The notes: a model not told the origin generated them from the sequence alone. A DNA stretch of 64,000 nt from a bacterium (GCA_021811315.1 JAJZPF010000010.1:3109-67108); one strand, 5' to 3'; shown: positions 12,406 through 63,060, counted from the first letter of the stretch. Numbers and translations are program-made.

Positions 12406-12432
12406 CGATCTCTGCTTCCCTTCCCCGTTCGC

Positions 12433-44170: not shown

Positions 44171-45139
44171 TCAGTTGGCCCCGGCTTCCGCGCGGACGCA
44201 GCGCACGAAGTGGCCGGGGGCGGCCTCGGTATAGTCCGGCCGTTTTTTCAGGCAGGCCTCGGCCGCGCGCGGGCAGCGGTCCGAGAAGACGCAGGCCTGC
44301 GGCCCGGGGCCGCCGCTCCCGTCCCGCCTCTCCTCGAGGACCGTTTTCCTGGCGGGATCGGGGTCGGGCACCGCCGAGAGGAGGAGCCTGGTGTAGGGAT
44401 GCCGGGTATCGCGGAAAAGCTCCGCCGCCGGGGCGTATTCCACCACGCAGCCCCTGTACATCACGGCGACGAAATCGCAGAGGTAGCGGACGGCGGCCAG
44501 GTCGTGGGAAATGAAAATATAGGAGATCCCAAGCTCTTTCTTGAGCCGGTTGAGCAGGTTCATGATCTGGGCCTGGATGGAGATGTCCAGGCTGGAGATA
44601 GGTTCGTCGGCCAGGATCATGCCGGGCCCGGTGGCGAGGGCGCGGGCTATGGCGACCCGCTGCCTCTGGCCGCCGGAGAACTCGTGCGGGTAGCGCAGCA
44701 GCGCGTCGGGCTTGAGGCCCACTCTTTCGAGGAGGGCCGCCGCGGTCTTTTCGCCGTCCGCGATCTTTTCCCCCGCCGCTCTCAGCGGCTCCAGGACTAT
44801 GTCTATTATCTTCATGCGCGGGTTCAGGCTGGAATACGGGTCCTGGAAGACCATCTGCGCGCCGCGCCGCGCCAGGCGCAGCTCCGCGCCGGAAAGCGAG
44901 GAGAGCTCCCTCCCGTCCAGGGTGACCCGCCCTGAGTCCGGCTTCTCGATGCCGAGGATAAGCTTCGCCAGGGTGGTCTTGCCGGAGCCGGATTCCCCGA
45001 CTATGCCCAGCGTCGTATTCTTTTCGAGCGCCAGGGAAACGCCGTCCACCGCGGTGAAGAGCTGCCCCCCGGAGCTGAAGAGACCGCCCGCTTTGCGGTA
45101 GCGCTTGGTTACATTGTCGATATTAAGTATGACGGGCAT
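44171..45139 (-). CDS. Peptide-type ABC transporter ATP-binding protein (OppF/DppF-like)
   Basis: [24 protein letters not shown]-terminal oligopeptide-ABC extension with Cys residues. Confidence 0.9.
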   Translation of the reverse strand: MPVILNIDNVTKRYRKAGGLFSSGGQLFTAVDGVSLALEKNTTLGIVGESGSGKTTLAKLILGIEKPDSGRVTLDGRELSSLSGAELRLARRGAQMVFQDPYSSLNPRMKIIDIVLEPLRAAGEKIADGEKTAAALLERVGLKPDALLRYPHEFSGGQRQRVAIARALATGPGMILADEPISSLDISIQAQIMNLLNRLKKELGISYIFISHDLAAVRYLCDFVAVMYRGCVVEYAPAAELFRDTRHPYTRLLLSAVPDPDPARKTVLEERRDGSGGPGPQACVFSDRCPRAAEACLKKRPDYTEAAPGHFVRCVRAEAGAN

Positions 45140-45140
45140 A

Positions 45141-46133
45141 TTATGGTTTAAAGCCGGGCTCGCCGCGCCAGCATTTCGAGCCGCGCCTTTCCCCCGTCCT
45201 GAATTCCGGCGGCTCGGCCGAGCGGCACTTGTCGAAGACTTCCGGGCATCTCGGCGCGAAGGGGCAGCCGGGCAGGTCCTCGTCGAAACTCGGGGGCAGG
45301 CCTTCTATCGTCTTGAGCGGTTCCCCGGGGTTGTCGCTCATTTTCGGCAGCGAATTCAGCAGGGCGCGGCTGTAGGGATGGGAGGGGCTTTTGAAGAAAT
45401 GTTCCGCCGGCCCGCGCTCCACCACGCGTCCGGCGTAAAAGACCAGGACGTAGTCGGCGCGCTGGGCCACGATGCCGAGGTTATGGGTGATGAGGGCCAG
45501 CGCCAGGCCGCTTTCTTTTTTCAGCGCGTCCACCAGGTCGAGTATCTGGGCCTGCACGGTGACGTCGAGCGCCGTGGTAGGCTCGTCGGCGATCACCAGG
45601 TCCGGGCCGCAGGCCAGCGCCATGGCTATCATGACGCGCTGGCGCATGCCGCCGGAAAAATTATGCGGGTACTGGGCGAGCCGGTTCCCGGCGTCGGTGA
45701 TCCCGACCTTTTCCAGCAGTTTCTCGCAGGCCGGCAGCGCCTCGGAGTAAGAAAGGCCTTTGTGCTCCATAAGCGGCTCCGCCAGCTGCAGGCCGATGGT
45801 GAGCACGGGATTGAGGGAGGTCATCGGCTCCTGGAAGACCATAGAGATCCCGGCGCCGCGCACGCCGCGCAGCTCTTCTTCCGGGAGCGCGGCCAGGTCC
45901 TTTCCCTTGTAGAGCACGCTGCCGGAGTCGATCTTCGCGCCGGGAGGCAGCAGGCGCACTACGGAAAGCGCGCCTATGGTCTTGCCGGAGCCGGATTCCC
46001 CGACTATAGCCAGCGTTTCCCCGGGGTAGATCCGGTAGCTTACGCCGCGCAGGATCCTGGTGGGCGTCCCGTCGCGCGCGACGGAGACGGAAAGGTCCCG
46101 GACTTCGAGCAGGGGCGCGGTCCTGTCTGTCAT
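45141..46133 (-). CDS. Peptide-type ABC transporter ATP-binding protein (OppD/DppD-like)
   Basis: [27 protein letters not shown]. Confidence 0.9.
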
Positions 46134-46837: not shown

Positions 46838-47337
46838 CCTAATTCATTTCCCCCGCTCCCGGTCCGCGATCTTCGATTCTCGACTCCCGATTCCCGATTT
46901 GCTTTGCTGTCCAGCCACAGGGTCACCGGGCCGTCGTTGATTATTTCCACTTCCATGTCCGCGGCGAAAACGCCGGTCTTGACCGGCACGCCCTTGCCCC
47001 GCAGCGCTTTTACGAAATATTCATAGAGCCTGCTGGCTTCCGGGGGCCTGGCGGCCGCGGTGAAATCCGGGCGGCGGCCCTTCGAGGCGTCGCCGTAAAG
47101 AGTGAACTGCGAGACCACCAGCGCTTCGCCCTTGACGTCCAGCAGCGAGTGGTCGAATTTGCCGGAGGAGTTGGAGAAGACCCGCAGGTTGGCCGTCTTT
47201 TCGGCCAGAAGCTCGGCGTCCGCCTCAGCGTCGCCCTCCCCCACCGCGAGCAGCACCACGAGGCCGCGGCCTATGGTTTCATGCGCGCCGGCGGTTTTTA
47301 CACCGCCGCGTTTCACCCGTTGTATAAGCGCCCTCAT
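46834..47337 (-). CDS. dtd: D-aminoacyl-tRNA deacylase with a 23-aa C-terminal tail encoded by the heptamer-repeat region
   Basis: [27 protein letters not shown]; the tail [23 protein letters not shown] follows the usual end of the family. Confidence 0.85.
46867..46901. repeat. Heptamer array: 5 units (CGATCTT CGATTCT CGACTCC CGATTCC CGATTTG)
   Basis: Read directly; 30 nt upstream of the lipoprotein ATG (46837) and inside the dtd tail. Confidence 0.8.
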
Positions 47338-47442
47338 AGATTCATTATAAATAATTTATCCTCACTCCCGCACTAGCGCGCGGCCGGGCCGCCGCTGAAC
47401 CGGGACTCCGGCGCTGAGCGGGCGGGCGGGTCCCGGACAGGC

Positions 47443-47471
47443 TTGAATATGTCGGTGCCCGGTTGTATAAT
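47443..47471 (+). promoter_or_regulatory. Sigma70-type promoter TTGAAT-N17-TATAAT
   Basis: Read directly; 46 nt upstream of the ATG at 47518, with a GCGCGG...CCGCGC hairpin and an AAAGGA ribosome-binding site in the leader. Confidence 0.55.
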
Positions 47472-47517
47472 TAAGTGTAAGGGCGCGGAACGGCTAAACC
47501 CCGCGCAAAGGAAAAAT

Positions 47518-47751
47518 ATGGTAACCGGACTCGTACTTGTTAAATTATTGCCTGGCAAAGAGAAGCAGACCCTCGGCAAGCTGAAGGCTCTCAAGAGCGT
47601 CGTTCATATGTCGGCCGTCTTCGGGCGCTGGGACCTGGTGCTCGACATGGAGACTGACGACCTGCCGGCGCTTTCCAATATAGTAGTGCAGGAAATACGC
47701 TCGATCCCGGGCGTGCTTTCCACCGAGACGCTGGTCACTACGTCGCTGTAG
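47518..47751 (+). CDS. Small Lrp/AsnC-type ligand-binding-domain-only protein (77 aa)
   Basis: MVTGLVLVKLLPGKEKQTLGKLKALKSVVHMSAVFGRWDLVLDME... resembles the AsnC_trans_reg fold pattern; internal ATG with a ribosome-binding site. Confidence 0.65.
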   Translation: MVTGLVLVKLLPGKEKQTLGKLKALKSVVHMSAVFGRWDLVLDMETDDLPALSNIVVQEIRSIPGVLSTETLVTTSL

Positions 47752-47753
47752 CG

Positions 47754-48263
47754 ATGCGTTCACTGATAGCCTGCCTATTGCTGGCTTTTGCCGCCGGTCC
47801 CGCCCGGGCCCAGTTATTCCTGGGCGCGGAAGTGGGGCCCGACGCTTTCATGAAGGCGGACCCCGGGAAAATAGATACCGACGGCGAGGACGCTTTCGCC
47901 TGGGCGCTCAGCTCCGAGGTCAGCACTTCCACGCTGTACTCCGTTTTCGGGTCCACGGACCCGGAGAAGGAGATCTTCGGCTACCTGCGGGGCGGCATTT
48001 ACAGGCAGGAGCTTGCGGCCCTCCTGCTGCTTTCCGAGAAAACTTCGGTCCCGTTCAAAAAACTCGCCGCCGAGCTCCCTAAAGCCGGCGGCTTCGGAGG
48101 CCTGGCGAAAAAACACGAAGCCGACGCTATGGCTATTTTTGACGCGGCCGGCCGCCTTAAGGCCGCGGCCGACCTCAGGACGCCGCTTTTCCTGTCGGCT
48201 CCGGCGGACGCCGGCGTCCGGCCCTCTACCGCCCCCGCGCTCTCCACCGATGAAAAAAACTAG
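47754..48263 (+). CDS. Secreted hypothetical protein (169 aa)
   Basis: Signal peptide MRSLIACLLLAFAAGPARA; begins 2 nt after the upstream stop. Confidence 0.5.
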   Translation: MRSLIACLLLAFAAGPARAQLFLGAEVGPDAFMKADPGKIDTDGEDAFAWALSSEVSTSTLYSVFGSTDPEKEIFGYLRGGIYRQELAALLLLSEKTSVPFKKLAAELPKAGGFGGLAKKHEADAMAIFDAAGRLKAAADLRTPLFLSAPADAGVRPSTAPALSTDEKN

Positions 48264-48723
48264 CCTGCTGCTCATAGTTTCCCTGCTGCTCTGCGGCCGC
48301 GCCTCCGCGCTTTCGGTGCCTAGCGGGGCTTCTTCGGCCAAACTCGTCCTCCCGGACGGCTTCAGCGTGAAGGCCGAGCTCGCGCTTACCCCGGAAACGC
48401 AGGAGAAGGGGCTGATGTTCCGCGAGGAGCTGCCGCGCGACCGGGGGATGCTTTTTGTGTTCGCGCGGCTGGAGCTCAGGTCTTTCTGGATGAAGAACAC
48501 TTTTATAGACCTGGACATGGTTTTCCTCGACGCCGGCCTGAAAGTGATAAAAGTGTTCCACCGGGTGCCGCGCTCGACCGCGGGCCAGCCCGAGGAGGAG
48601 GTCGCGCGGGTTTCGGCGCCAGCCGCCTGCGTGCTGGAACTTCCCGCCGGGGCCGCCCGCGCGCACCGGATAAAGCCCGGCTCTAAAATTAAAATTTCCT
48701 TTCCCGCGCCCGCGGTCAAATAA
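48250..48723 (+). CDS. DUF192-family secreted protein
   Basis: Internal ATG at 48250; GLMFREELPRDRGMLFVF....SFWMKNTFIDLDMVFLD is a typical DUF192 pattern. Confidence 0.7.
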   Translation: MKKTSLLLIVSLLLCGRASALSVPSGASSAKLVLPDGFSVKAELALTPETQEKGLMFREELPRDRGMLFVFARLELRSFWMKNTFIDLDMVFLDAGLKVIKVFHRVPRSTAGQPEEEVARVSAPAACVLELPAGAARAHRIKPGSKIKISFPAPAVK

Positions 48724-48726
48724 AAA

Positions 48727-48752
48727 GGCGGGCCGCCCGGCCCGCCTTTCTT
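48727..48752. terminator. Bidirectional Rho-independent terminator
   Basis: AAAAA-GGCGGGCC-gccc-GGCCCGCC-TTTCTT between convergent genes. Confidence 0.7.
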
Positions 48753-48766
48753 CCCCCCGCCGCCCG

Positions 48767-49071
48767 TCAGTTCCCGCTTCCCTGGTTCTGCTGCGCCTGT
48801 TTCAGCATCCCGGACATGTCGGGCATCCCGGCGCCGCTTTTCTGCGTTCCGGTTTTGTCGGGGGCGTCCGTGCCGAAGGGCTTCGCGCCCTGCAGGCGGG
48901 GTATGGTCGTGCGCTGCTTAAGCTTTTTCGAAGCGGCGGCTTTCTTCTTCCCCGGGGCCGGCGCCGGAGGGATCTTCGCGGTTTCCGGCTGCGCCTGCTT
49001 CGCCGCGGCCTGCCGGGGGGGGCCGCGGCCGGCTCTGTTCTCGTCCCGCCAGTTATTTGAGATATAAACAT
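48767..49071 (-). pseudogene. Small low-complexity (Ala/Lys/Pro/Gln-rich) gene whose ATG (49071) and coding-like frame are out of register across a G8 tract
   Basis: The downstream frame (to the stop at 48767) has high third-position GC but no canonical start. The ATG at 49071 is in the frame that a one-base change in the tract at 49015-49022 would join to it. Confidence 0.3.
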
Positions 49072-49096
49072 TTATTTTTATTGTAAAATAATCTAC

Positions 49097-49429
49097 ATGG
49101 GAATCTGGAAAAACGCTTTTAAAATACCGGAGCCCCCGGAGCCTACTCCTGAAGAAAAAAAGCTGCTGGACGACCTTGCGGAAAAAGCCGCGCGGCGGGG
49201 GCTGGGCGAAATAGCCGCTTTCACGGTTGAAAGCACCGCTCCCCTTCACAGCCTGGGCGCGCAGGGGATGATCTTTATCGAGCCGGCGCTTACGACGCTG
49301 TTTAAAAAAGAGGACGTGGAAAAGTACAGGGCCCTGCTGGAGAACAGCAAGGCCGTGAAATATTTAGTGAGCCGGCTGAACGCCGAGACGGAAGAAAAGG
49401 AAGCCACCAATGTCAAAAAAAGACCTTGA
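49097..49429 (+). CDS. Hypothetical 110-aa protein, first gene of the GlmL-like module
   Basis: ATG 7 nt after a TAAAAT box; overlaps the next gene by 20 nt; no family recognised. Confidence 0.5.
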   Translation: MGIWKNAFKIPEPPEPTPEEKKLLDDLAEKAARRGLGEIAAFTVESTAPLHSLGAQGMIFIEPALTTLFKKEDVEKYRALLENSKAVKYLVSRLNAETEEKEATNVKKRP

Positions 49430-51203
49430 AATCATTATAGCCACCGACTGCGGCAGCACTACCACGAAAGCCATCCTCATAGAAAAGAAAGGCGATACCT
49501 ACCGCCAGACTTTCCGCGGCGAGGCCCCGACCACGGTCGAGGCCCCGTTCGAGGACGTCACCAAGGGCGTGCTGAACTCGATCACGGAGGTCGAGGAACT
49601 CTCCGGCCGCAAAATACTCGACGGCGAAAGGATCATAACTCCCAACAGCGGCAACGTGGGAGCGGACATCTACGTCTCCACCTCCTCGGCCGGCGGCGGC
49701 CTGCAGATGATGGTCGCCGGGGCCGTGAAAGCGATGACCGGCGAGTCCGCGCAGCGCTGCGCCCTGGGCGCCGGCGCCATCGTGATGGACGTGCTGGCCT
49801 CCAACGACGGCCGCGCCGACCATGAGAAGATAGAGCGCATCCGCCAGCTGCGCCCGGACATGATGCTCCTCTCCGGCGGCACCGACGGCGGAACCATCAC
49901 CCACGTGGTCGAGCTCGCCCAGTTCCTGAAGGCCGCCGACCCCAAGCCCCGCCTCGGCGCCTCCTACAAGCTGCCGGTGATCTACGCCGGCAACAACAAG
50001 GCCCACGCGCAGATCAAGGAAATACTCGGCGACCGCACGGCGCTGATCATCACCGAGAACCTCCGCCCCACGCTGGAGAAAGAGAATTTGATGCCGGCCC
50101 GCCACAAGATCCACGACATCTTCCTCGAGCACGTGATGCAGCAGGCCCCCGGCTACCCGCGCCTGATGAAGATGGTGGGCGCCCCGATAATGCCCACTCC
50201 GGCCGCGGTAGGCACTATGACGGAAAAGTTCGCCAAGGCCAATAAATTCAACGTCCTGGCCGTCGATATCGGCGGCGCCACTACCGACGTGTTCTCGGTC
50301 TTCTCGGAAGTTTTCAACCGCACCGTGAGCGCCAACCTGGGCATGAGCTACTCCATCTCCAACGTGATGGCCGAGGCCGGCCTGGCCAATATCCTGCGCT
50401 GGCTCCCTTTCGACATGGACGAGCAGGACCTCAGGAACCGCCTGAAGAACAAGATGATAAGGCCCACCACCATCCCCCAGACGGTAGAGGACCTGCAGAT
50501 CGAGCACGCGGTCGCGCGCGAGGCTCTCCGCCTGGCTTTCGACCAGCATAAGGCGCTGGCCGTGGGGCTGAAGGGCGTCCAGCAGGAGCGCTCCATCTCC
50601 GACGCTTTCGACCAGACCGCCTCCGGGGCCAGCCTCATCAACGTGATGCGGCTGGATTACGTGATAGGCTCAGGCGGCATCCTCGCGCATTCCCCCCGCC
50701 GCACCCAGTCCATGCTTATGATGATAGACGCCTACCAGCCCGAGGGCATCACCCGCATGGCCGTGGACTCCATCTTCATGATGCCGCACCTGGGCGTGCT
50801 GGCGCAGATCAGCGAGAAAGCCGCGCTGGACGTGTTCTACCACGACTGCCTGGTGAGGCTGGGCACGTGCCTCGCGCCTAAGGGCCTGGCCAAGGAAGGC
50901 CAGCTTATCATGGAGTGGGAAGTGACCGGTTCCGACGGCAGCCGCCAGGCCGGCGAGCTCCGCTTCGGCGATATCCTCCACGTCCCCTTCGCGGCCCCCA
51001 AGGCCAGGCTGGTGGCCAAGCCGGTCAAAGGCTTCGACATGGGCGCCGGCTCCGGCAGCCGCGTAGAGGCGGACATAGAAGGCGGCGTGGTCGGCCTGGT
51101 GCTGGACGGGCGCGGCAGGCCCTTCAACATTTCCAAGGAGCCGGCAAAGCGCCGCGACGACCTGAACAAGTGGTACAAAGCGATGGGGATGTACCCGGTC
51201 TAA
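49410..51203 (+). CDS. GlmL/MutL-like ASKHA-fold ATPase (glutamate mutase L family-like, 597 aa)
   Basis: IIATDCGSTTTKAILIEK and VLAVDIGGATTDVFSVF phosphate-binding motifs typical of the GlmL family. Confidence 0.75.
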   Translation: MSKKDLEIIIATDCGSTTTKAILIEKKGDTYRQTFRGEAPTTVEAPFEDVTKGVLNSITEVEELSGRKILDGERIITPNSGNVGADIYVSTSSAGGGLQMMVAGAVKAMTGESAQRCALGAGAIVMDVLASNDGRADHEKIERIRQLRPDMMLLSGGTDGGTITHVVELAQFLKAADPKPRLGASYKLPVIYAGNNKAHAQIKEILGDRTALIITENLRPTLEKENLMPARHKIHDIFLEHVMQQAPGYPRLMKMVGAPIMPTPAAVGTMTEKFAKANKFNVLAVDIGGATTDVFSVFSEVFNRTVSANLGMSYSISNVMAEAGLANILRWLPFDMDEQDLRNRLKNKMIRPTTIPQTVEDLQIEHAVAREALRLAFDQHKALAVGLKGVQQERSISDAFDQTASGASLINVMRLDYVIGSGGILAHSPRRTQSMLMMIDAYQPEGITRMAVDSIFMMPHLGVLAQISEKAALDVFYHDCLVRLGTCLAPKGLAKEGQLIMEWEVTGSDGSRQAGELRFGDILHVPFAAPKARLVAKPVKGFDMGAGSGSRVEADIEGGVVGLVLDGRGRPFNISKEPAKRRDDLNKWYKAMGMYPV

Positions 51204-51206
51204 AAA

Positions 51207-51280
51207 CGATCGAGAATCGGGGATCGGGAATTCAGGAGCAGATTCCCCCGATTCCCGACTCGCGATCCCTGATTCATCGG
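51207..51280. repeat. Inverted heptamer arrays: purine-rich ATCGAGA ATCGGGG ATCGGGA facing pyrimidine-rich CGATTCC CGACTCG CGATCCC TGATTCA
   Basis: Read directly, between the GlmL-like stop (51203) and the next start (51319). Confidence 0.75.
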
Positions 51281-51318
51281 TATATGGTTTTCAATTTGGT
51301 TTTTTAAGGAGACAGCTT

Positions 51319-52443
51319 ATGGCGCACGCATATACACCCGGACTTAAAGTAATGCCCTGCACGCTGCTGAAGAAGAAGAGGCTCCTGCCTATTCCCGGAA
51401 AGGTGCTTGCCGAAATGGGCCGGCAGGTGGATTCCCTGGACGTGGTGGCGCAGACCGAACTGCCGGGGAAAGTCTTCTCCGTCAACGTGGCCAACCGGCT
51501 GGCCGTCGGCCCCGACGAAATAAAGAATTTCATGACCAAGGGCGAAGGCGACGCCGTGAAGAAAGGCGAGACCATCGCCGAGAACAAGCCCTTCCTGAAA
51601 TGGTTCAAGACCTCCGTCGAGTCCCCCGTGGACGGCGTCGTGGAGGCCGTCTCCCTTATCACCGGCCAGGTGCTGCTGCGCGAGCCGCCGAAAGTCCTCC
51701 CGATAAAAGCCTATGTGAAAGGCAAAGTGGTGGAGGTCACGCCCAATTTCGGCGTCGTTATCGAGACCGAGGGCACCTTCATCCAGGGCATCTTCGGCGT
51801 GGGCGGCGAGACCAACGGCGAGATCTGCATGGCCGTCGCGAGCCCCGACGAGGACCTGACGACCGAAGATATCAAGGAGAACCACAGGGGCAAGATAGTC
51901 ATCGGCGGGAAACACGCCAGCCTTTCCACCATAAAGCGCGCCATCGAACTGGGCGTTAACGCCATCGTGGTGGGCGGGATACACGACCGCGACCTGCGCC
52001 AGCTGCTGGGCTACGATATCGGCGTGGCGGTGACCGGCCATGAACAGCTGGGGATCACCGTGATCGTTACCGAGGGGTTCGGAATGATCCCGATGGCGGA
52101 ATATACTTTCAAGCTGCTCGCCTCCCGCAACGGCGAGAGCGCCTCGGTGTCGGGCGCGACGCAGATCCGCGCCGGGGTGATGCGCCCCGAGATCATAGTC
52201 CCGGGCTTTCCCAAGAACGTGACCGAGTCCAAGAAGGACCAGGGCCGCGGCTGGATAGAGCCCGGCGACCCGATACGGATAATCCGCGAGCCGCATTTCG
52301 GCGTGATAGGCACGGTCAGATCCCTGCCCCCCGAGCTTACGGTGATCGGCAGCGAGAGCCACGCCCGGGTGCTGGAAGTGACCCTGGACAGCGGCGAAGT
52401 CATCGTCGTCCCGCGCGCGAACATCGAAGTGCTTGAAAAATAA
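51319..52443 (+). CDS. Hypothetical 374-aa protein with a lipoyl/hybrid-barrel-like segment and KOW-like beta segments
   Basis: Strong ribosome-binding site TAAGGAGA; VKKGETIAENKPFLKWFKTSVESPVDGVVEAV resembles a biotinyl/lipoyl-type hammerhead; no family assigned. Confidence 0.6.
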   Translation: MAHAYTPGLKVMPCTLLKKKRLLPIPGKVLAEMGRQVDSLDVVAQTELPGKVFSVNVANRLAVGPDEIKNFMTKGEGDAVKKGETIAENKPFLKWFKTSVESPVDGVVEAVSLITGQVLLREPPKVLPIKAYVKGKVVEVTPNFGVVIETEGTFIQGIFGVGGETNGEICMAVASPDEDLTTEDIKENHRGKIVIGGKHASLSTIKRAIELGVNAIVVGGIHDRDLRQLLGYDIGVAVTGHEQLGITVIVTEGFGMIPMAEYTFKLLASRNGESASVSGATQIRAGVMRPEIIVPGFPKNVTESKKDQGRGWIEPGDPIRIIREPHFGVIGTVRSLPPELTVIGSESHARVLEVTLDSGEVIVVPRANIEVLEK

Positions 52444-52461
52444 CGGTGAACGGGGTCTTGT

Positions 52462-52556
52462 GATCGGTAATCAGAGCCAGGGTCGAAAAAAACCGCGCTG
52501 ATTGCCGATCTCTGATTCCCGAATACCGGATCCCCGGTCCTCTGCTTTCGACTCCG
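52462..52556. repeat. Degenerate heptamer region with an inverted pair GATCGGTAATCAGAG (52462-52476) / CTCTGATTCCCGAAT (52510-52524)
   Basis: 12 of 15 positions complementary; downstream 7-nt periodicity CCGATCT CTGATTC CCGAATA CCGGATC. Confidence 0.6.
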
Positions 52557-52561
52557 TGGTT

Positions 52562-54727
52562 ATGGCTAAAAAAACCAAAAAACCTTATGTCAAACCGGCG
52601 CCGGTCCCGGAGCCGAAGGACCGGTTCCCGGCCTGGCTTGTCTGGCCGGTCGTCGCGGCCTGGGGTGTTTTTGTCCTTAAAAGCTACTATTCAAAATTCC
52701 CCGTTAATCCGGACCTGCTTTCCAGCATCCTCTCGCCGGAGCAGTATACCGCCGGCCTTTTCAGCGTCCTGCCCGGGCATTTCCTGAACGTCCTGTACGC
52801 CGCGGTTTTCCTGTTCGCCTGCTTCTCGGCCGGCCGCGCGGCCCTTAAGGCGGCCCGGTTCGGCTTTGCCGGCGCGCTTGAGGAAGCGGTTTTTTCCTGC
52901 GGCGCGGGTTTCGGCCTGCTGGCCGCTTATGTTTTCATCCTTGCCGCTTTCAAGCTGCTTTACTTCTGGCCCGTGGCCGCTTTCATTCTCCTGGCCGGCG
53001 CCGCGGGGATCTATTCCCTGCGCAAGGAGCCCCTTCGCGCCGCCGGCGGCCCGGCCGCGTTAGGCCCCGCCGACTTCGCCGCGCTGGCGGTGCTCCTGCT
53101 GGCCATGCTGCTGAACCTGGCGGGGGCGCTGAGCCCCGAGATCTTCTACGACGCCCTGGTCTACCATCTTGCGGTCCCCAATTATTTCGTGATCAAACAC
53201 GGGATAGCCCCGATGCCCTATAATTTTTATTCCGACCTGCCTTTCACGCACGGGATGCTTTACGCCGCGGCGCTGCTGCTTAAGGGCGAGGCCCTGGCCA
53301 AATTTATAAATTACGGGGCGGGGCTCCTGACGGCCGGGGCCGTGCTGGCCCTCGGCGCGCGCCGTTTCTCCCTCAGGGCTGGGCTCTGGGGCGCGGCTAT
53401 ATTCTATACCGTAGGCCACGCCATGCTCGCCTCCTGGGCTACCGGCACCGAAACGCTGCTGATGTTCTTCTCCACCCTCGCGCTCTACGCGGTCCTGAAC
53501 CGTACCGACGAAGAGCCGCGCTGGCTCTGGCTCGCGGCCTGCTTCTGCGGCCTGGCCATGGGCGTCAAGTACACGGGCTTCTTTACCGCCGTGGGCGTTA
53601 TGCTGGTTTACGCCTGGCCGGCCCGCTCCCGGCCGCTGGCCGCGGCTAAGAACCTGGCGCTCTTCACGCTGGTCGCCTCTTTCTTCGTCGGGCCCTGGCT
53701 GATAAAGAATTATCTTTACCAGGGCGACCCGGTTTTTCCTTTCGCCCTGGGCCTCTTCGGCGCGGGCCCGCATTCCGACGCGCTGAAACTTAAGGAATTT
53801 ATCAGCCAGGCCAGCCAGATGGGGCCGCTGAGGCCGCTGTACTGGCTGACCATGCCCTGGAAGATCACGATGGGCCAGGTCCCGAACTCCGAATATTTCA
53901 GCCCGCTTTTTATCGTCATGCTCCCGCTCGCTTTCCTCCTGTCGGGGGCGGCGGGGCCGGCCCTCTCCGGCCTCTGGATATTTTTTCTTTCCGTCTGGGC
54001 GGGCTTTTCGGTCTCTTCCACCATGGTGCGCTTCCTTATGCCGGCCTATCCCGCGGCCGGGCTGATAATGGCGGCCTACCTTTTTTCACCGGGCCACAAG
54101 GCGCTGAAAAGCGCGCTCAAAGCCGCGGCGCTGGCCGTCTGCTTCACCGGGCTTTACTGGGCCGTGGTGATCTTTTATTCCCAGGGACGCTGGCGGCCCC
54201 TGGCCGGGGCCGTGGCCGTGGAGGACTACCTGAGCCATACCCAGCCCACTTATCCTTACAGCAGCTACGCCGGGGTAAAATACATCAACGAAAAAACCGC
54301 GCCCGGCTCCAAAGTCCTGCTGGTCGGCGACGAGCGGAGCTATTATCTTAAGAAAGATTTTATCGTAAGTTCGGTCTATGACAATACGGCCGCTGTGGAA
54401 TACGCCGCGGCGTCCAAAGACGGCGAGGACCTTTACGCGCGGCTTAAAGCCGACGGCGTTACGCATATACTTCTAAACACGGCCGAGGCCATAAGGCTGG
54501 GCACGAGTTACCGGATGTTCTACTGGGACGAGCGCGCCCGCGGCGTTTTCTATTCCTTCTGGGACCGGCATGCCAGGGAGGTGTTCTCCTTCGACGAAGC
54601 GCAGAACGGGCAGGTCTTCAACCGCGTTCTGGTCTACGAGCTCGACGATAAACTCCCCGCCGGCGTTCCCCCGGCCTTCAATGTGATGAAAGAAATTATC
54701 ATGAAGAACATCGAAGCGAAACATTAG
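52562..54727 (+). CDS. GT-C fold membrane glycosyltransferase (family 39 / ArnT-PMT-like) with a C-terminal soluble domain
   Basis: More than 10 predicted TM helices, first-loop motif PEIFYDALVYH, length and topology typical of PMT_2 proteins; internal ATG at 52562. Confidence 0.65.
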   Translation: MAKKTKKPYVKPAPVPEPKDRFPAWLVWPVVAAWGVFVLKSYYSKFPVNPDLLSSILSPEQYTAGLFSVLPGHFLNVLYAAVFLFACFSAGRAALKAARFGFAGALEEAVFSCGAGFGLLAAYVFILAAFKLLYFWPVAAFILLAGAAGIYSLRKEPLRAAGGPAALGPADFAALAVLLLAMLLNLAGALSPEIFYDALVYHLAVPNYFVIKHGIAPMPYNFYSDLPFTHGMLYAAALLLKGEALAKFINYGAGLLTAGAVLALGARRFSLRAGLWGAAIFYTVGHAMLASWATGTETLLMFFSTLALYAVLNRTDEEPRWLWLAACFCGLAMGVKYTGFFTAVGVMLVYAWPARSRPLAAAKNLALFTLVASFFVGPWLIKNYLYQGDPVFPFALGLFGAGPHSDALKLKEFISQASQMGPLRPLYWLTMPWKITMGQVPNSEYFSPLFIVMLPLAFLLSGAAGPALSGLWIFFLSVWAGFSVSSTMVRFLMPAYPAAGLIMAAYLFSPGHKALKSALKAAALAVCFTGLYWAVVIFYSQGRWRPLAGAVAVEDYLSHTQPTYPYSSYAGVKYINEKTAPGSKVLLVGDERSYYLKKDFIVSSVYDNTAAVEYAAASKDGEDLYARLKADGVTHILLNTAEAIRLGTSYRMFYWDERARGVFYSFWDRHAREVFSFDEAQNGQVFNRVLVYELDDKLPAGVPPAFNVMKEIIMKNIEAKH

Positions 54728-54797
54728 GTTCGTTTATTTATTCCTCTCCCCGCCAAAGATTTGCTACTTTATACTTAAAGCGGCGGTTTTTATCTGA

Positions 54798-56579
54798 ATG
54801 CTTATAAAACGCTTCATTTTCTCCTCCTTGTGCTTCATTCTTCTCTCGGGCTTCTCGCCCGCGCGCGCTTTCGACCCCTCCGGCTGGCAGACCAGCAAAG
54901 ATTATCCGCTGATCGGCTCGCCGGAGGCTAAAAAAGGCGGGACGCTCCGCTCTACCTGGCTGAGCTTCCCCCCGACGCTGCGGGTCCTCGGCCCTAATTC
55001 CAATACCATGGAGAGCAGGGACCTGCAGAACATGGTCTACGAGACCCTGCTGGGCCTGCACCCGGAGACGCTCGAGTACATGCCCGGCCTCGCCGATTAC
55101 TGGAAGATCTCTCCCGACAAGCGCAAGTTCTATTTCCATATAAACCCGAAGGCCCGCTGGGCCGACGGCAGCCCGGTTACCGCCGAGGACGTGGTGGCCA
55201 GTTGGGAATTCAAGGTCCGCAAGGATATCAAGGACCCTTATTCCTTGATGATGTGGAGCGAGAGCTACGAGAAACCGGTGGCCGAGAGCGCCGACATCGT
55301 CTCGGTGAAGACGAAGAAACTGCACTGGCGCCTCTTTATGTATTTCAGCGGCACTGCGATCTACCCGGCAAAAGAGCTCAAGAACCTGACCGGGGATAAA
55401 TACCTGGAAGATTATAACTGGAAGATGTTCATGGGCTCAGGCCCCTATGAATTGAAGCCGGAGAATATCAGGAACGGGGAATCCATCACGCTGACCCGCC
55501 GCCCGGATTACTGGGGCGAGAAAGAAAGAGGCAATATAGGCCTCAATAATTTCGACAAGCTCACCTGGCTGGTAGTGATGGACGAGGAGCTCGCTTTCGA
55601 GAAGTTCAAGAAGGGCGAGCTTGATTATTATTACGTCAATAAGTCCCAGCGCTGGCTCGAGGAATCCGATTTCGACAAGGTGCAGAAAGGCTGGATCCTG
55701 AAGCGCAAGATCTTCACCCGGGCGCCGCAAGGTTTTTCCGGCCTGGTCTTCAATATGCGCAAGCCCCCCTTCGACGACCGGAACGTCCGCAAGGCTTTCG
55801 CCTACCTTTATAACCGGGACAAGCTGATAGACAAGCTTTTCTTCGGAGAATACGGCTTTATCGACAGCTATTACCCCGGCAGCGACTGGGGCAATCCGGA
55901 CAACCCGAAGATACGCTATAACCCGCGGATGGCCAAGCGCCTGCTTGCGCGGGCGGGCTGGAAGACCCGCAACCAGGACGGCTGGCTGGAGAAAGACGGG
56001 AAGCCTTTCGAGATAACCCTGGAATACGGAGACCCCGGCTCGACCAGGATACACAAGGTGGTGCAGGAAGACTTTAAGAAAGCCGGCATCAAGATGAACC
56101 TCAAGCTCATCGACCGGAACACGCTGATGAAGAAGGTCGGCGAGCGCAATTTCACCATCCATTCCCAGGCCTGGGGCGCGCTGCAGTTCCCAAACCCCGT
56201 CAGCTCCTGGAGCGGCGAGCTGGCGGACAAGAACGACAATAACAACCTCCCGGGCTTCAAGAACGCCGAGGTGGACGCGCTCTGCAAAGAATACGACCTG
56301 GCTTTCGATGTTAAGACCCAGAAGCGCCTTATCCGCAGGATAGACGGCCTAATCTTCAGGGCGCATCCTTACGCGCTGGGCTGGAGCGCGGGTTTCAGCC
56401 GGATACTTTACGTTAACCGGTTCGGCCACCCGGATAAATATTTCTCCAAGATCGGGGATTACAGGGGCATAATTTCCCTGTGGTGGGCGGATCCCGACAA
56501 GGAAAAAGCGCTGGCGGAGGCCGTGAAGAGCGGCAAGAGCCTGCCGGTAGGGGAGACGGAACTGCGGCCCTGGGACTGA
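54798..56579 (+). CDS. ABC transporter substrate-binding protein, family 5 (peptide/opine/nickel type; YejA-like length)
   Basis: Signal peptide; family-5 SBP patterns such as KKGGTLR, WADGSPVTAEDV, RPDYWG. Confidence 0.85.
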   Translation: MLIKRFIFSSLCFILLSGFSPARAFDPSGWQTSKDYPLIGSPEAKKGGTLRSTWLSFPPTLRVLGPNSNTMESRDLQNMVYETLLGLHPETLEYMPGLADYWKISPDKRKFYFHINPKARWADGSPVTAEDVVASWEFKVRKDIKDPYSLMMWSESYEKPVAESADIVSVKTKKLHWRLFMYFSGTAIYPAKELKNLTGDKYLEDYNWKMFMGSGPYELKPENIRNGESITLTRRPDYWGEKERGNIGLNNFDKLTWLVVMDEELAFEKFKKGELDYYYVNKSQRWLEESDFDKVQKGWILKRKIFTRAPQGFSGLVFNMRKPPFDDRNVRKAFAYLYNRDKLIDKLFFGEYGFIDSYYPGSDWGNPDNPKIRYNPRMAKRLLARAGWKTRNQDGWLEKDGKPFEITLEYGDPGSTRIHKVVQEDFKKAGIKMNLKLIDRNTLMKKVGERNFTIHSQAWGALQFPNPVSSWSGELADKNDNNNLPGFKNAEVDALCKEYDLAFDVKTQKRLIRRIDGLIFRAHPYALGWSAGFSRILYVNRFGHPDKYFSKIGDYRGIISLWWADPDKEKALAEAVKSGKSLPVGETELRPWD

Positions 56580-56596
56580 GGCCTCACCCTTAAATT

Positions 56597-57643
56597 ATGC
56601 ACGGAATGATCACCTATTTTATCCGCCGGCTGCTTCTGATCCCGGTCACTTTCATCGCTATAACTTTCCTGGTCTACTTCATGCTGCGCGTCGTGCCGGG
56701 CGGCCCGATAGAGCAGGCGCAGCTGCAGATAAAGATGGCGATGATGGGCGAGGGCGGCTCCTCAGGCATGGCCAGCGAGCAGGGCGAGCTCCAGATCCCG
56801 GCAGCGGCGATGGCCGAGCTGAAGAAGTATTACCATCTCGACAAGAGCATTCCCGAGGGCTACGCGCGCTGGCTGTGGGGCATCTGCCGCCTCGATTTCG
56901 GCCGCTCCTACGTTTACAGCGAGCCCGTGCTCGACGTGATAATTTCAAAGTTCCCGGTCTCCATCTATTTCGGCCTGATAGGCTATTTCGCTTCCTGGCT
57001 GATCTGCGTGCCTCTGGGCGTGACCAAGGCCATAAGGCATAAGTCGGGTTACGACACTGCCACCTCCATCATAGTCTTTCTCGGCTATTCCATCCCCGGT
57101 TTCGTGGCCTGCCTGATGCTGATGGTGCTGCTGGGCGGCGGCAGCTACCTCGACATTTTACCCCTCGGCGGTTTCCGGTCCGAGAACTGGGCCCAGCTCG
57201 GCTTCTTCGCCAAGATCGCCGACCAGCTGCGGCATACGGCCATCCCGGTGCTCGGCTACGTTATGGGCGGCTTCGCCACGATGACCATATTGATGAAGAA
57301 TTCCCTGCTGGATAACCTGGGCGCGGATTATGTGCGCACGGCCTTCGCCAAGGGCCTCTCCGAGAACCGCGTCCTCTTCGTTCACGCTATGCGCAATTCC
57401 CTGATCCCGATGACCGTGGGCATCGGCCACGCGCTCGGCCTGCTTTTCGCCGGCTCTTTCCTTATAGAGAAGACCTGCAATATCCAGGGTATGGGCCTGC
57501 TCAGCTTTAATTCGGTCATACAGCGCGACTACCCGGTGATACTCGGAACGCTGGTGTTCCTGGTGTTGATAAGGCTGATGGGCAATATTTTCTCCGACGT
57601 GGTGTGGGCGCTGATAGACCCCAGGATAAGGTTCGGCAAATGA
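56597..57643 (+). CDS. ABC transporter permease (YejB/OppB-like)
   Basis: MITYFIRRLLLIPV..., YVRTAFAKGL EAA loop. Confidence 0.85.
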   Translation: MHGMITYFIRRLLLIPVTFIAITFLVYFMLRVVPGGPIEQAQLQIKMAMMGEGGSSGMASEQGELQIPAAAMAELKKYYHLDKSIPEGYARWLWGICRLDFGRSYVYSEPVLDVIISKFPVSIYFGLIGYFASWLICVPLGVTKAIRHKSGYDTATSIIVFLGYSIPGFVACLMLMVLLGGGSYLDILPLGGFRSENWAQLGFFAKIADQLRHTAIPVLGYVMGGFATMTILMKNSLLDNLGADYVRTAFAKGLSENRVLFVHAMRNSLIPMTVGIGHALGLLFAGSFLIEKTCNIQGMGLLSFNSVIQRDYPVILGTLVFLVLIRLMGNIFSDVVWALIDPRIRFGK

Positions 57644-59022
57644 TCGTACTAAAGCTTGTAGAGACCGCCGTCCTGCTGACCGCCGGGCATCTTTTTACCC
57701 ACAGGGCGCTGCCCTCTCTTTACGTCAAGACGGGCGCCGCGCTCGGCTTCGACATGAAGCTCGCCCCGCACTGGGAAAAGCGCATCAAGCGCTTTAAGAC
57801 CATAAAGCGCGGCTATTATTCTTTCCTTATAATTACCACGCTGTTCGTGATGTCCCTGTTCCTGGAGTTCATGGTGAACAATAAACCGCTGTTCATCCGC
57901 TACGGCTCCAAGGTCTCTTTTCCGGCCGTGGCCGAGTGGACCGATCAGCTTCTTTTCTTCAAAGCCCCCCGCCCGATGAACATGAAAGCCGATTTCGGGC
58001 AGATAGGCGACGACGAGGTCGATTACCGGCTGTTCGCGGCGGCCCGCAAAGACCCGTCCCTGTTCGATTCCCAGGCGAAGGCGCTTGAGGCCGAGATAGG
58101 CGAGATCCGCAGGCAGCTCGCCGTCAAGCCGGCCCCCCGCGCCACCCCGGAGGAACTGCAGGACTACAGGGACCTGCAGGAGATAGTCCCCGATATCGAG
58201 GCCGAGCTCAAGGCCCTGGCCGAAGCAAAGAGCATGTTCGCGGCCGGCAAGGCGGCGATACTGATGCCGGTCTACCCATATTCCCCGCGGGAGCATCTGC
58301 TGGATATGCCGGGCAGGCCGCCGCACAGGCCCGGCAATGACCACCTGCTTGGCACCGACGATTCAGGTACCGATGTTTTCGCCCAGCTGGTCTACGGCTT
58401 CAGGACCTCCATGTCTTTCGCGCTGATAGTCTCCATCCTCGGCTATCTCATCGGCATCGTAGTCGGCGGGGTGATGGGCTACTTCGGCGGCTGGACCGAC
58501 ATTCTTTTACAGCGCTTCATAGAGATCTGGGCCTCCATCCCTTTCCTGTTCATGCTTATCATTATCGCGTCTATGGTCCAGCCCACTTTCCTGCTGCTGG
58601 TTTCGCTGATAGTGCTGCTGCAGGGCTGGGTGGGCATCTCCTACTATATCCGCGGCGAGTTCTACCGCGAGAAGTCCAGGGATTATGTGCACGCGGCCGT
58701 GGCCATGGGCGCGAGCGAATGGTCGGTGATGATGAAGCATATCCTGCCCAACTCGCTGGTCCCGCTGGTCACCTTCGCGCCTTTCAGTATCGTCGGGACT
58801 ATCGGCTCGCTGGTGTCCCTCGACTTCCTCGGCTTCGGCCTGCCGGTGGGGACGCCCAGCTGGGGCGTGCTGCTGGACCAGGGGATGAAATACCTGAAGT
58901 ATTACCCGCACCTTATTCTTACCCCCTCCATCGCGCTGGCGGTGACGCTCTTCATGGTGGTCATGGTCGGCGAGGCGGTGCGCGAAGCTTTCGACCCGAA
59001 GGTTTTCTCGAGGCTGAGATAA
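57640..59022 (+). CDS. ABC transporter permease with a long N-terminal extension (YejE/OppC-like)
   Basis: ATGA overlap with the upstream stop; HLLGTDDSGTDVF and AAVAMGASEWSVMMKHILPNS. Confidence 0.85.
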   Translation: MIVLKLVETAVLLTAGHLFTHRALPSLYVKTGAALGFDMKLAPHWEKRIKRFKTIKRGYYSFLIITTLFVMSLFLEFMVNNKPLFIRYGSKVSFPAVAEWTDQLLFFKAPRPMNMKADFGQIGDDEVDYRLFAAARKDPSLFDSQAKALEAEIGEIRRQLAVKPAPRATPEELQDYRDLQEIVPDIEAELKALAEAKSMFAAGKAAILMPVYPYSPREHLLDMPGRPPHRPGNDHLLGTDDSGTDVFAQLVYGFRTSMSFALIVSILGYLIGIVVGGVMGYFGGWTDILLQRFIEIWASIPFLFMLIIIASMVQPTFLLLVSLIVLLQGWVGISYYIRGEFYREKSRDYVHAAVAMGASEWSVMMKHILPNSLVPLVTFAPFSIVGTIGSLVSLDFLGFGLPVGTPSWGVLLDQGMKYLKYYPHLILTPSIALAVTLFMVVMVGEAVREAFDPKVFSRLR

Positions 59023-59023
59023 T

Positions 59024-60028
59024 ATGCCCGGAACCCCCGAAAAGAAAAAACTGCTGGAAGTCAGAGGCCTGAAAACCTCATTCCAGGTCGACGACAAAAG
59101 AGCCAGGGCCGTGGACGGCGTGGATTTTCATATTTACGAGAACGAGGTCCTGGGCCTCGTCGGCGAGTCCGGCTGCGGCAAGTCCGTGACAGCGCTGAGC
59201 CTGCTCCGCCTGATCCCCGACCCCCCGGGCAAAATAACCGACGGGGAGATAATTTTCAGGGGCAGGGACCTGCTGAAGCTGTCCTATCCGGAGATGCGCA
59301 AGATCCGCGGCAAAGAGATCTCGATGATCTTCCAGGAGCCGATGACCTCCCTGAACCCGGTCTTCTCCATCGGCTGGCAGCTGATGGAGGCAATCCGCTT
59401 CCACCAGGAAGGCCTGACGAAAAAGCAGATCGAGGCCCGGGCCGTGGAGATGCTCGGCCTGGTCGGCATCCCCTCCCCTAAAGAGCGTCTTAACGATTAT
59501 CCCCACCAGTTTTCCGGCGGCATGCGGCAGCGCGTGATGATCGCTATGGCGCTGTCCTCCGACCCCGCCCTCCTTATCGCGGACGAGCCGACGACGGCGC
59601 TCGACGTCACCATCCAGGCGCAGATCCTGGACCTGATGCTGGAGGTGAAAAAAAAGACGCACGACGCGGCTATCCTGCTCATCACCCACGACCTGGCCGT
59701 GGTGGCCGAGACCTGCCAGCGCGTAGTCGTGATGTACGGCGGGAAGATCCAGGAAATTTCCGACGTGAAGCCGCTTTTCGACGGGCCGCTTCACCCGTAT
59801 ACGGTAGGCCTCCTCAAGTCCCTGCCCGGCTTCAAGAACGAGCCCGGCAAGCGCCTGCCCGTTATAGAAGGGATGGTTCCCGACATCCTGAGCTTCCCCA
59901 AAGGCTGCAAATTCAACAACCGCTGTTCCGAGGTCATGCCGGTCTGCCGCGAGACCGAGCCGGAGCTGGTCGAGGTCTCCCCCGGCAGGCAGGTAAGGTG
60001 TCACAAATGTCCAAAAAAACAGCCGTAA
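59024..60028 (+). CDS. ABC transporter ATP-binding protein (OppD-like)
   Basis: [27 protein letters not shown]. Confidence 0.9.
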
Positions 60029-61026: not shown

Positions 61027-61108
61027 CGCCGCGGCGCGTTCCGGACGGTTTCCCCCGGGTGATTTTCGCTTGCCTGAAAAATCCATAAAGTGTATATTAT
61101 TGTAAGTT

Positions 61109-62380: not shown

Positions 62381-62386
62381 TAACTT

Positions 62387-63055
62387 ATGAAATTAATCAA
62401 AAAAACCATACCGCTGGCCATCGTCTTCGTTTTCGGCATCCTGACGCTGCTGACTTATTATGTGCCGCACAAGCATTCCGTGGACTTCCTGGAAACGATG
62501 AATAAATGGGAAAATATCGTGACGGCTTTCGCGTTCTTCCTGGGCTTGATAAGCCTTTTTTACGCCCATTCCACCAAGATCTCCCGCAAGGCCGACGGCT
62601 GGGGCTACAGCCTTTTCGTCTTTGTAGGCTTCCTCGCGATAATAATCCCGGCCTATATCAGCAAAGGCAAGAACATGAACGGCGCGGAGCTGACCTGGAT
62701 GGGCTGGGCTTTCCAGTATATCTACAACCCGCTTTCGGCCACCATGTTCGCCGTGCTGGCTTTCTACATCGTTTCCACCGCGTATAAGTCTTTCCGCATA
62801 AAGTCCCTCCAGGCCTTCGTCCTCTTCGTGGCGGCGATGTTCCTGATACTCGGGAACGTCCCGCTCGGCCAGATCATCTGGGACAAAATGCTGGGCTGGA
62901 CCGGCTATAACATCTCGCAGGTCGTGGATTGGATCATGCACGTGCCGGCCGTGGCCGGAAAGCGCGGCATCATGATAGGCATCTCCATAGGCGCGGTAGT
63001 CACGGCCCTTAAAATTATTTTCGGTATTGAACGTCAATACCTCGGCAAGGATTGA
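62387..63055 (+). CDS. Hypothetical polytopic membrane protein (222 aa, about 6 TM)
   Basis: Begins 6 nt after the upstream stop; strongly hydrophobic throughout. Confidence 0.6.
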   Translation: MKLIKKTIPLAIVFVFGILTLLTYYVPHKHSVDFLETMNKWENIVTAFAFFLGLISLFYAHSTKISRKADGWGYSLFVFVGFLAIIIPAYISKGKNMNGAELTWMGWAFQYIYNPLSATMFAVLAFYIVSTAYKSFRIKSLQAFVLFVAAMFLILGNVPLGQIIWDKMLGWTGYNISQVVDWIMHVPAVAGKRGIMIGISIGAVVTALKIIFGIERQYLGKD

Positions 63056-63060
63056 ACCTT

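Follow-up and report, generated by a model that had tools for sequence, protein, structure and literature searches.

The sequence analyzed here is a 64,000-nt stretch (hereafter, the window) of a contig from an Elusimicrobia metagenome-assembled genome (GCA_021811315.1, JAJZPF010000010.1:3109-67108). Three consecutive genes of the window, the trio, encode proteins of 110, 597 and 374 amino acids (aa), the second of which resembles the ATPase GlmL. A sequence-only reading of this region had proposed that the trio is a GlmL-like ATPase with two dedicated partners, independent of a mutase and uncharacterised. The three open reading frames (ORFs) are present as read, a separate gene call on the source contig returned the same three genes, and the 110-aa and ATPase genes indeed overlap, sharing 20 nt through overlapping stop and start codons. 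The core of that proposal holds in view of conservation, natural gene fusions and the lack of a mutase. Its restriction to three genes does not: the trio is real but incomplete, and four membrane-protein genes at 61109-64000 (the quartet, whose first member carries a DUF6754 domain) belong with it. Judged by gene content across genomes, the conserved unit appears to be seven genes, i.e. the trio plus the DUF6754 quartet (Table 1), and we hold it very probable that the trio forms a mutase-independent ATPase complex belonging with this quartet.

Conservation was analyzed in 160 related loci (80 genomic and 80 metagenome loci), and all ORFs of the 80 genomic loci were clustered; 45 of the latter, with 6 kb or more of sequence to either side of the 374-aa gene, are called well flanked. 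Nearly all carriers are metagenome-assembled genomes. By record title, the matches listed come from Elusimicrobia, Nitrospirota, Binatia, Latescibacterota, Planctomycetota, Dormiibacterota, Eisenbacteria, WOR-3, Methylomirabilis, Poribacteria, Bacillota, Cloacimonadota, Stahlbacteria and Bdellovibrionales, and a separate search added Armatimonadota and Hydrothermia as carriers of the 374-aa gene. The ATPase gene lies immediately 5' of the 374-aa gene in 38 of the 45 well-flanked loci, and a homologue of the 110-aa gene precedes the ATPase gene in 60 of the 80 genomic loci (38 of the 45 well-flanked ones). The trio, on whose conservation the sequence-only reading had staked its proposal, is thus kept as a neighbourhood across about 15 phylum-level groups. 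In addition, two natural in-frame fusions join a whole 597-type to a whole 374-type protein (P0263, 995 aa; P0327, 1003 aa), and both retain the C-terminal domain of the ATPase. These fusions are the strongest evidence at hand that the ATPase and the 374-aa protein act as one complex.

Table 1. Features of the trio, the membrane quartet and the DNA around them (positions in the window)
Position	Feature	Strand	Basis or details
49057-49092	Promoter-like AT-rich box, putative function; TTGAGA-16-TATTGT and TAAACA-16-AATAAT	+	Consensus scan
49097-49429	110-aa gene, upstream member of the trio	+	ORF
49410-51203	597-aa ATPase gene	+	ORF
51208-51275	Hairpin 1, GAATCGG / GGATCGG heptamers and complements		Inverted repeat in the 115-nt gap between the ATPase and 374-aa genes
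51319-52443	374-aa gene	+	ORF; AAGGAG Shine-Dalgarno sequence at 51306-51311
52452-52534	Hairpin 2, heptamer repeat		Inverted repeat in the gap before the next gene
52562-54727	PMT-like GT-C (glycosyltransferase C-fold) membrane glycosyltransferase, 721 aa from ATG 52562	+	Pfam PMT/PMT_2, ~1e-6
54798-61026	Oligopeptide-type ATP-binding cassette (ABC) operon		Family-5 binding protein, two permeases, two ATPases
61109-62380	Membrane subunit 1 (DUF6754), 423 aa	+	Pfam PF20539, 2.4e-112, 374.7 bits vs 27
62387-63055	Membrane subunit 2, 222 aa, ~6 transmembrane segments, new family	+	Gene call, hydropathy, co-occurrence
63052-63885	Membrane subunit 3, 277 aa, new family	+	Gene call, hydropathy, co-occurrence
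63936-64000	Start of membrane subunit 4, new family, cut by the window end	+	tblastn to the L002 orthologue

The 597-aa protein matches the Pfam family MutL (PF13941) at 2e-127 (426 bits, cut-off 27), its residues 9-479 being aligned to positions 1-449 of the 450-position model. The motifs DCGSTTTKA and DIGGATTDV, on which the likeness to GlmL had first been based, are part of the nucleotide-binding motifs ATDCGSTTTKA, DIGGATTDVFS and GSGGxLxH (phosphate-1, phosphate-2 and adenosine, respectively), which are invariant in the cross-phylum alignment. The protein stays below the curated cut-offs for GlmL-type proteins, namely NF040745 (methylaspartate mutase accessory protein, 232.9 vs 475 bits), NF040744 (Or-4, GlmL-related ornithine degradation, 213 vs 600 bits) and TIGR01319 (glmL_fam, 168.2 vs 204.05 bits). 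It is 27-30% identical to genuine GlmLs annotated beside glmS, all alignments ending by query residue 476, and 28% identical to Peptoclostridium acidaminophilum GlmL (461 aa) over residues 9-476. The excess length, previously put at about 130 aa, is 136 aa relative to this GlmL; it is entirely C-terminal and corresponds to a domain at residues 477-597 with the motif GGVVGxxxDxRGRP, which is kept in all aligned orthologues; the match to the curated GlmL model likewise stops at query residue 476. Full-length orthologues from Nitrospirota, Binatia, Planctomycetota, Eisenbacteria, Bacillota, Bdellovibrionales and others are 58-69% identical to the window protein, with long invariant blocks in common across phyla. 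Because identity is 58-69% to cross-phylum orthologues and 27-30% to GlmL, and because the scores stay below the cut-offs, the ATPase is best placed, by sequence, in a separate and very strongly conserved PF13941 clade with an extra domain, and not with GlmL. Within Elusimicrobia, the ATPase is 88-100% identical over more than 100 clusters, and its 374-aa partner in the same genomes is 68-96% identical, which points to unusually strong constraint on the ATPase in this group. PDB searches by single sequence and by profile found no relative of the ATPase with a solved structure.

This placement bears on the possibility that the protein is an ordinary GlmL, reactivating a B12-dependent glutamate or ornithine mutase encoded elsewhere and surrounded by unrelated genes. 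Our literature searches returned nothing relevant to the system apart from one sentence on GlmL, in a passage of PMC4682846, where its presumed role is that of a chaperone reactivating glutamate mutase. Membership of PF13941 is what an ordinary GlmL would predict, and database records do call the ATPase 'glutamate mutase L' or 'methylaspartate mutase'. However, all three curated cut-offs failed, identity to a real GlmL is only 28% with an extra domain on top, and the fixed partners are the 374-aa protein (fused to the ATPase in places) and the 110-aa protein. Genomic context argues in the same direction. In P. acidaminophilum the gene order is glmS, glmL, glmE and methylaspartate ammonia-lyase; whereas real glmL sits between glmS and glmE, none of the 160 loci has either gene alongside, and no mutase was found among their conserved neighbours. 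The window itself yielded no B12-binding motif and no GlmS-like match, a weak test because of the GlmS query used, and no cobalamin riboswitch or other known RNA was found in 47300-64000. The absence of nearby mutase genes, observed at the outset for the window, extends to the related loci. Many carrier lineages, moreover, are not known for glutamate fermentation.

The only B12-related gene near any member of the family, and a point that may be raised in favour of an ordinary GlmL, occurs in one lineage. In L163 (7300-9986) and L164, a lone 374-aa homologue has upstream of it genes for a stand-alone 138-aa B12-binding protein, for a protein of 470 aa and for TatC, so that the B12-binding gene lies three genes away from it. 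The 470-aa protein has no family match and is unrelated to the ATPase, and this neighbourhood is probably coincidental. On balance, the ordinary-GlmL explanation is very improbable and close to refuted, and the GlmL-type database names are misleading.

The 374-aa protein has 2515 relatives as clusters at 50% identity with E <=1e-3 (510 at E <=1e-30), and a scan of one genome per species gave at least 570. All sources label it hypothetical or 'KOW domain-containing'. An AlphaFold2 (AF2) model from a 60-sequence alignment reached a mean predicted local distance difference test score (pLDDT) of 87.3 and a predicted template modelling score of 0.77. Four parts are predicted: residues ~1-130 form a beta-rich barrel-sandwich hybrid domain into which a short helical segment is inserted, residues 131-171 a small beta domain, residues 180-295 a Rossmann-like alpha/beta domain, and residues 316-374 a KOW/SH3-like domain. 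Two features that had been suspected from the sequence are recognisable here. The lipoyl/hybrid-barrel-like segment corresponds to the modelled hybrid barrel and to sub-threshold matches at residues 58-114 with RnfC_N (0.0024, 18.3 vs 25.6 bits) and NqrA_N (0.02, 15.5 vs 25 bits), and the KOW-like beta segments are reflected in domain-level Foldseek matches to the KOW domains of NusG/Spt5, alongside PA-domain-like fragments. At the level of the whole chain, Foldseek found no PDB match (query TM-score <=0.19), and single-sequence and profile searches found no PDB sequence relative. Pfam and NCBIfam likewise gave no characterised family, so that the protein is as unassignable as it had first seemed, and it represents a new family.

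The alignment of the 374-aa family shows the invariant motifs QGIFGVGGE, TGxE, TEGFG, GATQIRAGxxRPE and PRANxE. Invariant polar residues (R21, Q156, E242, E252, T281, Q282, R284, R289, E291, R366, N368 and E370) are clustered in the motifs and might belong to a fixed interface or to an active site. The hairpin lysine of the barrel, K90, lies outside the invariant or >=90% conserved columns of both family alignments; with only 12 bits to Biotin_lipoyl_2 as well, a lipoyl or biotinyl carrier role was rejected. The score against TIGR01936 (nqrA) is also 12 bits (cut-off 321). For the Rossmann-like domain, identity as a GlmS-like B12 domain was rejected on an hhalign probability of 1%, and profile searches found no similarity of the protein to any B12-binding family. 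In two Bacillota loci (L066 and L080), two ATPase/partner pairs stand in tandem with a 110-aa-type gene between them and no quartet within 8 kb; one of the partners is about 452 aa long, with a duplicated N-terminal hybrid-barrel region (compare P0290 and P0305).

The 110-aa protein of the trio has a conserved hydrophobic-polar core (PAxxFLESxxPLxFLGSQxLxFLxP) followed by a variable, often basic tail. It has no match in Pfam, NCBIfam or PADLOC, hydropathy predicts no transmembrane segment, and it too represents a new family. The overlap between its gene and the ATPase gene is 4 nt in Nitrospira.

With a GlmL-like ATPase core and a partner that contains a Rossmann-like domain, a chaperone or reactivase for a non-B12 client has to be considered. 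In the manner proposed for GlmL, DdrA and EutA, such a protein would use ATP to open its partner in order to load, exchange or repair a bound cofactor; the client would be either DUF6754 or, in the 374-aa protein, the Rossmann-like domain. An ATPase gene followed by one for a small Rossmann-like-domain protein does echo GlmL with GlmS, and the fusions show a tight one-to-one partnership. Nevertheless, the 374-aa profile resembles neither GlmS nor any B12-binding family, no cofactor-binding motif was recognised, and conservation of this kind on the chaperone side is rare among chaperone-client pairs. We regard this explanation as improbable.

The quartet was recognised by clustering over the 80 genomic loci, where families of about 420 (DUF6754), 220, 280 and 245 aa are encoded 3' of the 374-aa gene. 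Subunit 1 starts with a signal or anchor segment and an Fn3-like domain on the periplasmic side; two transmembrane segments, the second of them C-terminal, then enclose the DUF6754 core, for which a cytoplasmic location is predicted. The N-terminal domain of subunit 1 resembles that of exopolygalacturonase 2uve (6.7e-7). Subunit 3 has a conserved cytoplasmic N-terminal tail with the motif KIDRR, followed by a predicted periplasmic portion (about 210 aa) between two transmembrane segments, of which the second is C-terminal. The cytoplasmic placement of the conserved segments in these two proteins is predicted from hydropathy and the positive-inside rule. The subunit 4 fragment is 95% identical to its L002 orthologue over 21 aa, and its relatives are polytopic proteins of about 244 aa. 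Subunits 2-4 have no match in Pfam, NCBIfam, PADLOC or PDB sequences, and no relative of subunit 4 was found in the PDB; DUF6754 has no known function, and no paper mentioning it was found. Kinship between the DUF6754 core and the 277-aa protein, or between the 222-aa and 244-aa proteins, was rejected, neither pair being related.

Linkage between the two modules was found from either side. With the 374-aa gene as anchor, the full quartet is present in 36 of the 45 well-flanked loci. In the reverse test, a DUF6754 profile scan of metagenome contigs gave 21 well-flanked loci, among which the quartet is complete in 20, as a tight operon, and the ATPase pair lies alongside in 15. In the window, the quartet is 8.6 kb downstream of the trio on the same strand, and the PMT-like glycosyltransferase gene and the oligopeptide-type ABC operon lie between them. 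In close relatives (L002, L004 and L005) the glycosyltransferase gene alone separates the two modules, and in Nitrospira and a more distant Elusimicrobia genome the quartet directly follows the 374-aa gene. The modules also remain adjacent in rearranged forms, with the quartet first (L083), in divergent orientation (L150) or in convergent orientation (L074, Bdellovibrionales). An unchanging gene order would be weaker evidence that the modules are functionally coupled.

In the part of our proposal that we hold very probable, the trio supplies the cytoplasmic side of a conserved system made up of two modules. The 597-aa protein, with its predicted actin/Hsp70-type fold, would bind ATP and probably hydrolyse it, and would be an obligate complex partner of the 374-aa protein and, probably, of the 110-aa protein as well. 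The second module would be a four-protein inner-membrane complex, encoded next to the trio in most genomes. More tentatively, the ATPase complex may dock on the cytoplasmic face of the quartet, with the core of DUF6754 and the KIDRR tail of subunit 3 as candidate sites. ATP-driven domain closure, in the style of Hsp70- or reactivase-type ASKHA (acetate and sugar kinase/Hsp70/actin) proteins, would then alter the conformation of the membrane complex, and this change would move or assemble something at the envelope; weak leads on the cargo suggest a glycan, a lipid-linked or a secreted component. A purely cytosolic role seems less likely because the trio is linked to membrane proteins. Docking on the quartet, with ATP-driven closure driving an envelope-directed transport or assembly step, is a tentative proposal to which we give somewhat less than even credence. 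The broadest version, a new inner-membrane machine in which the quartet is powered or gated by an actin-fold ATPase with a 374-aa adaptor and a 110-aa subunit, serving a housekeeping envelope function in many little-studied phyla, is conceivable but doubtful.

Several observations weigh against this proposal. The two modules do not always travel together: the ATPase pair occurs without a quartet within 6-9 kb in Bacillota, Cloacimonadota and some Planctomycetota and WOR-3, the 374-aa gene is alone within 6-9 kb in some WOR-3 and Poribacteria, and quartets lack the pair within 9 kb on some contigs. Two or three tandem copies of the quartet, found in L124, L125, L136 and L153, are counted on the same side; they look as though there were paralogous complexes of different specificity. 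The AF2 model of the ATPase, built from an alignment of 88-100% identical sequences, has a pLDDT of only 36.6, too low to show the C-terminal domain or any interface. The physical link between the modules is one that we infer, and ASKHA proteins are not known to power membrane transport. Furthermore, the envelope-type neighbours described below come from few lineages and were noticed post hoc, and a census of 64 co-directional immediate neighbours revealed no dominant family.

The single occurrence of modules and the tandem quartets, which recall transporter paralogues, would fit a soluble two-component ATP-dependent enzyme (597-aa plus 374-aa proteins) with a small-molecule substrate, which the quartet would import or export. 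This explanation may also draw on weak matches of the ATPase to Hydantoinase_A and Hydant_A_N at the phosphate-2 motif (8e-5 and 22.5 bits, under the gathering scores), on the many invariant polar residues of the 374-aa protein, which resemble an active site, and on the peptide ABC transporters and family-5 solute-binding proteins that recur nearby. Nevertheless, no other pathway enzymes or regulators are conserved beside the cluster, and no quartet protein resembles a known transporter family. The carriers are diverse (nitrite oxidisers, fermenters and predators), which argues against a single catabolic substrate, and a cross-phylum identity of 58-69% is unusually high for an accessory catabolic enzyme. 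We regard an enzyme with its own transporter as unlikely, though by no means negligible.

The same high identity, comparable to that of cytoskeletal proteins, could also be explained if the actin-fold ATPase polymerised into a cytomotive or scaffolding filament that the quartet and the two smaller trio proteins anchor to the membrane. The partners do include bitopic and polytopic membrane proteins, and the cytoplasmic KIDRR tail of the 277-aa protein recalls the PilN tail that is bound by PilM. Polymerisation is not known for PF13941, however, and the sole match to an actin homologue, MreB-like_C, scores 15.6 bits against a cut-off of 27.8. Moreover, a one-to-one fusion to a globular 374-aa protein is hard to fit into a filament lattice. 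A filament is accordingly quite improbable, and we retain the ATP-driven, quartet-linked complex as our preferred interpretation.

Conserved neighbourhood is limited to the seven genes themselves, but other genes around the two modules provide some hints on function. The PMT-like gene is found between the modules only in this Elusimicrobia clade (L001, L002, L004, L006, L081 and L082), and it may accompany the system without belonging to its core. In WOR-3 (L055, L071, L075, L165 and L166), a TMEM260-like gene with GT-C and tetratricopeptide repeat features lies directly 5' of a lone 374-aa gene and a DegT-type aminotransferase gene directly 3' of it. GT-C neighbours are confined to two unrelated clades, downstream and PMT-like in Elusimicrobia, upstream and TMEM260-like in WOR-3, and a link to envelope glycosylation is possible. 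TatC is encoded directly upstream of the 374-aa gene in one other lineage, and lone quartets are adjoined by a Wza-like exporter, a TonB-type outer-membrane protein and an LPG_synthase_TM protein. These recurring hints, weak as they are, point toward the cell envelope. In eight Nitrospirota loci the lipoyl synthase gene lipA is upstream (e.g. L033:4687-5595), and LplA/LipB-like ligase genes are downstream in two other loci (L069:12551-13321 and L136:13436-14158). Such lipoate neighbours are curious because the 374-aa protein has a lipoyl-like barrel, yet the modifiable lysine is not conserved; being limited to three lineages, they serve as a lead only.

In Nitrospirota (L008-L064, e.g. L024:12864-14099), a Memo-like gene of the AmmeMemoRadiSam system protein B family lies directly 3' of the fourth membrane gene. 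Its product has an N-terminal extension of about 115 aa. Among the 80 genomic loci the gene was detected in 32, among the 80 metagenome loci in 16, and it is absent from other phyla. The ABC operon of the window, a complete one, is not at this place in close relatives such as L002, and two more oligopeptide-type ABC ATPase genes are found at 44171-46133 on the opposite strand. An anti-phage defence system was rejected, since none of the seven proteins has a PADLOC match (E up to 0.01).

Hairpins on either side of the 374-aa gene had been described as bracketing it. They are real inverted repeats, with RNA-fold z-scores of -2.7 (hairpin 1) and -3.4 (hairpin 2), but they are not a feature of the module. 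The window contains 10 matches to one 18-mer of the repeat (<=3 mismatches; 0.1 expected), and further GRRTCGG-type copies lie at 12432-12452, 16104-16138, 18995-19071, 38995-39008 and 46873-46893. A hairpin is present at the ATPase/374-aa junction in L001, L002 and L004, with differing sequences, and absent there in L003, L005, L006 and L011. Because they are dispersed in the window and missing at orthologous sites, the hairpins are not considered part of the system, and a role as module-specific regulators was rejected on the same grounds. By their sequence and distribution they look like a mobile, intergenic element of this Elusimicrobia lineage, similar to repetitive extragenic palindromic elements.

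The trio had also been credited with its own leaderless-type promoter. Sigma-70-like hexamers are present and finish 5-13 nt ahead of the ATG at 49097, and an upstream scan found no Shine-Dalgarno sequence before this start. A -10-like box (TTTTATTGTAAAAT / TTTTATAGTAGAAT) is kept 7-13 nt before the ATG in four relatives (L002-L005). A promoter here is plausible, and so is a leaderless transcript, or one with a very short leader, for the 110-aa gene. About 370 nt upstream of this gene (48724-49096) contain no called gene. On the minus strand, a low-complexity ORF rich in Lys, Pro and Ala (48767-49249, 160 aa) runs into the start of the 110-aa gene and is probably spurious.

These results have consequences for annotation. 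The GlmL-type labels wrongly imply B12-dependent glutamate fermentation in Nitrospira, Elusimicrobia, Planctomycetota and others, and placing the ATPase in a clade of its own would correct metabolic reconstructions of many uncultured lineages. Five of the protein families in the seven-gene set have no annotation, no solved relative and no paper. The ATPase is about as conserved as cytoskeletal or chaperone proteins over about 15 phylum-level groups, as would be expected if a piece of core cell biology were still missing for non-model bacteria. Should the ATPase indeed drive the membrane complex, this would be a new coupling of ATP to membrane work, and the machine would use an actin-fold ATPase instead of an ABC, AAA+, P-type or rotary ATPase. 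The fusions, the tandem quartets and the rearranged but adjacent modules offer concrete handles for testing.

Among known systems, GlmL/MutL and Or-4 are closest to the ATPase, with which they have the PF13941 ASKHA core (residues 9-476) and the motifs DxGSTxxK, GGTDGG and DxGGATTD in common. The window protein differs in being 136 aa longer, in never lying beside glmS/glmE or oraS/oraE, and in its partners, namely the other two trio proteins and, in most cases, the four of the quartet. The reactivases of B12 enzymes (DdrA-DdrB and EutA) consist of a large actin/Hsp70-fold ATPase with a smaller partner that contains a Rossmann-like domain. This pairing is similar, and ATP-driven opening of a partner is a possible way of working; however, they gave no PDB sequence or profile match, and the present system has no B12 enzyme nearby, is linked to membrane proteins and has a four-domain partner. 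The A subunits of hydantoinases, oxoprolinases and acetone carboxylases belong to the same ASKHA clan and form two-component ATP-dependent enzymes, whereas the system described here lacks a Hydantoinase_B-type partner, its 374-aa protein is unrelated, and the matches stay under the gathering scores.

PilM-PilN-PilO and MreB-MreC-MreD likewise combine a cytoplasmic actin-fold protein with bitopic and polytopic membrane proteins encoded together with it, one of which has a conserved short cytoplasmic N-terminal tail. There is no sequence relationship to them, however, subunit number and architecture differ, and the seven-gene system has an additional 374-aa adaptor, sometimes fused to the ATPase. 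A reading in terms of Rnf/Nqr suggests itself, since the gene for a peripheral hybrid-barrel subunit adjoins those for four membrane subunits: RnfC and NqrA also combine a hybrid barrel with Rossmann-like and small beta domains, and the four membrane proteins are of roughly similar size. Yet no Fe-S or flavin motif was recognised, and the two polytopic subunits of the quartet are unrelated to each other. This analogy was rejected on sequence, the matches being under the cut-offs and the membrane profiles finding no Rnf/Nqr chains in the PDB. The seven-gene system thus matches no known system. It could yet prove to be a variant, if an unusual one, of something familiar, for example a chaperone module or a transporter, and the best reading is an uncharacterised, ATP-driven, membrane-associated system.

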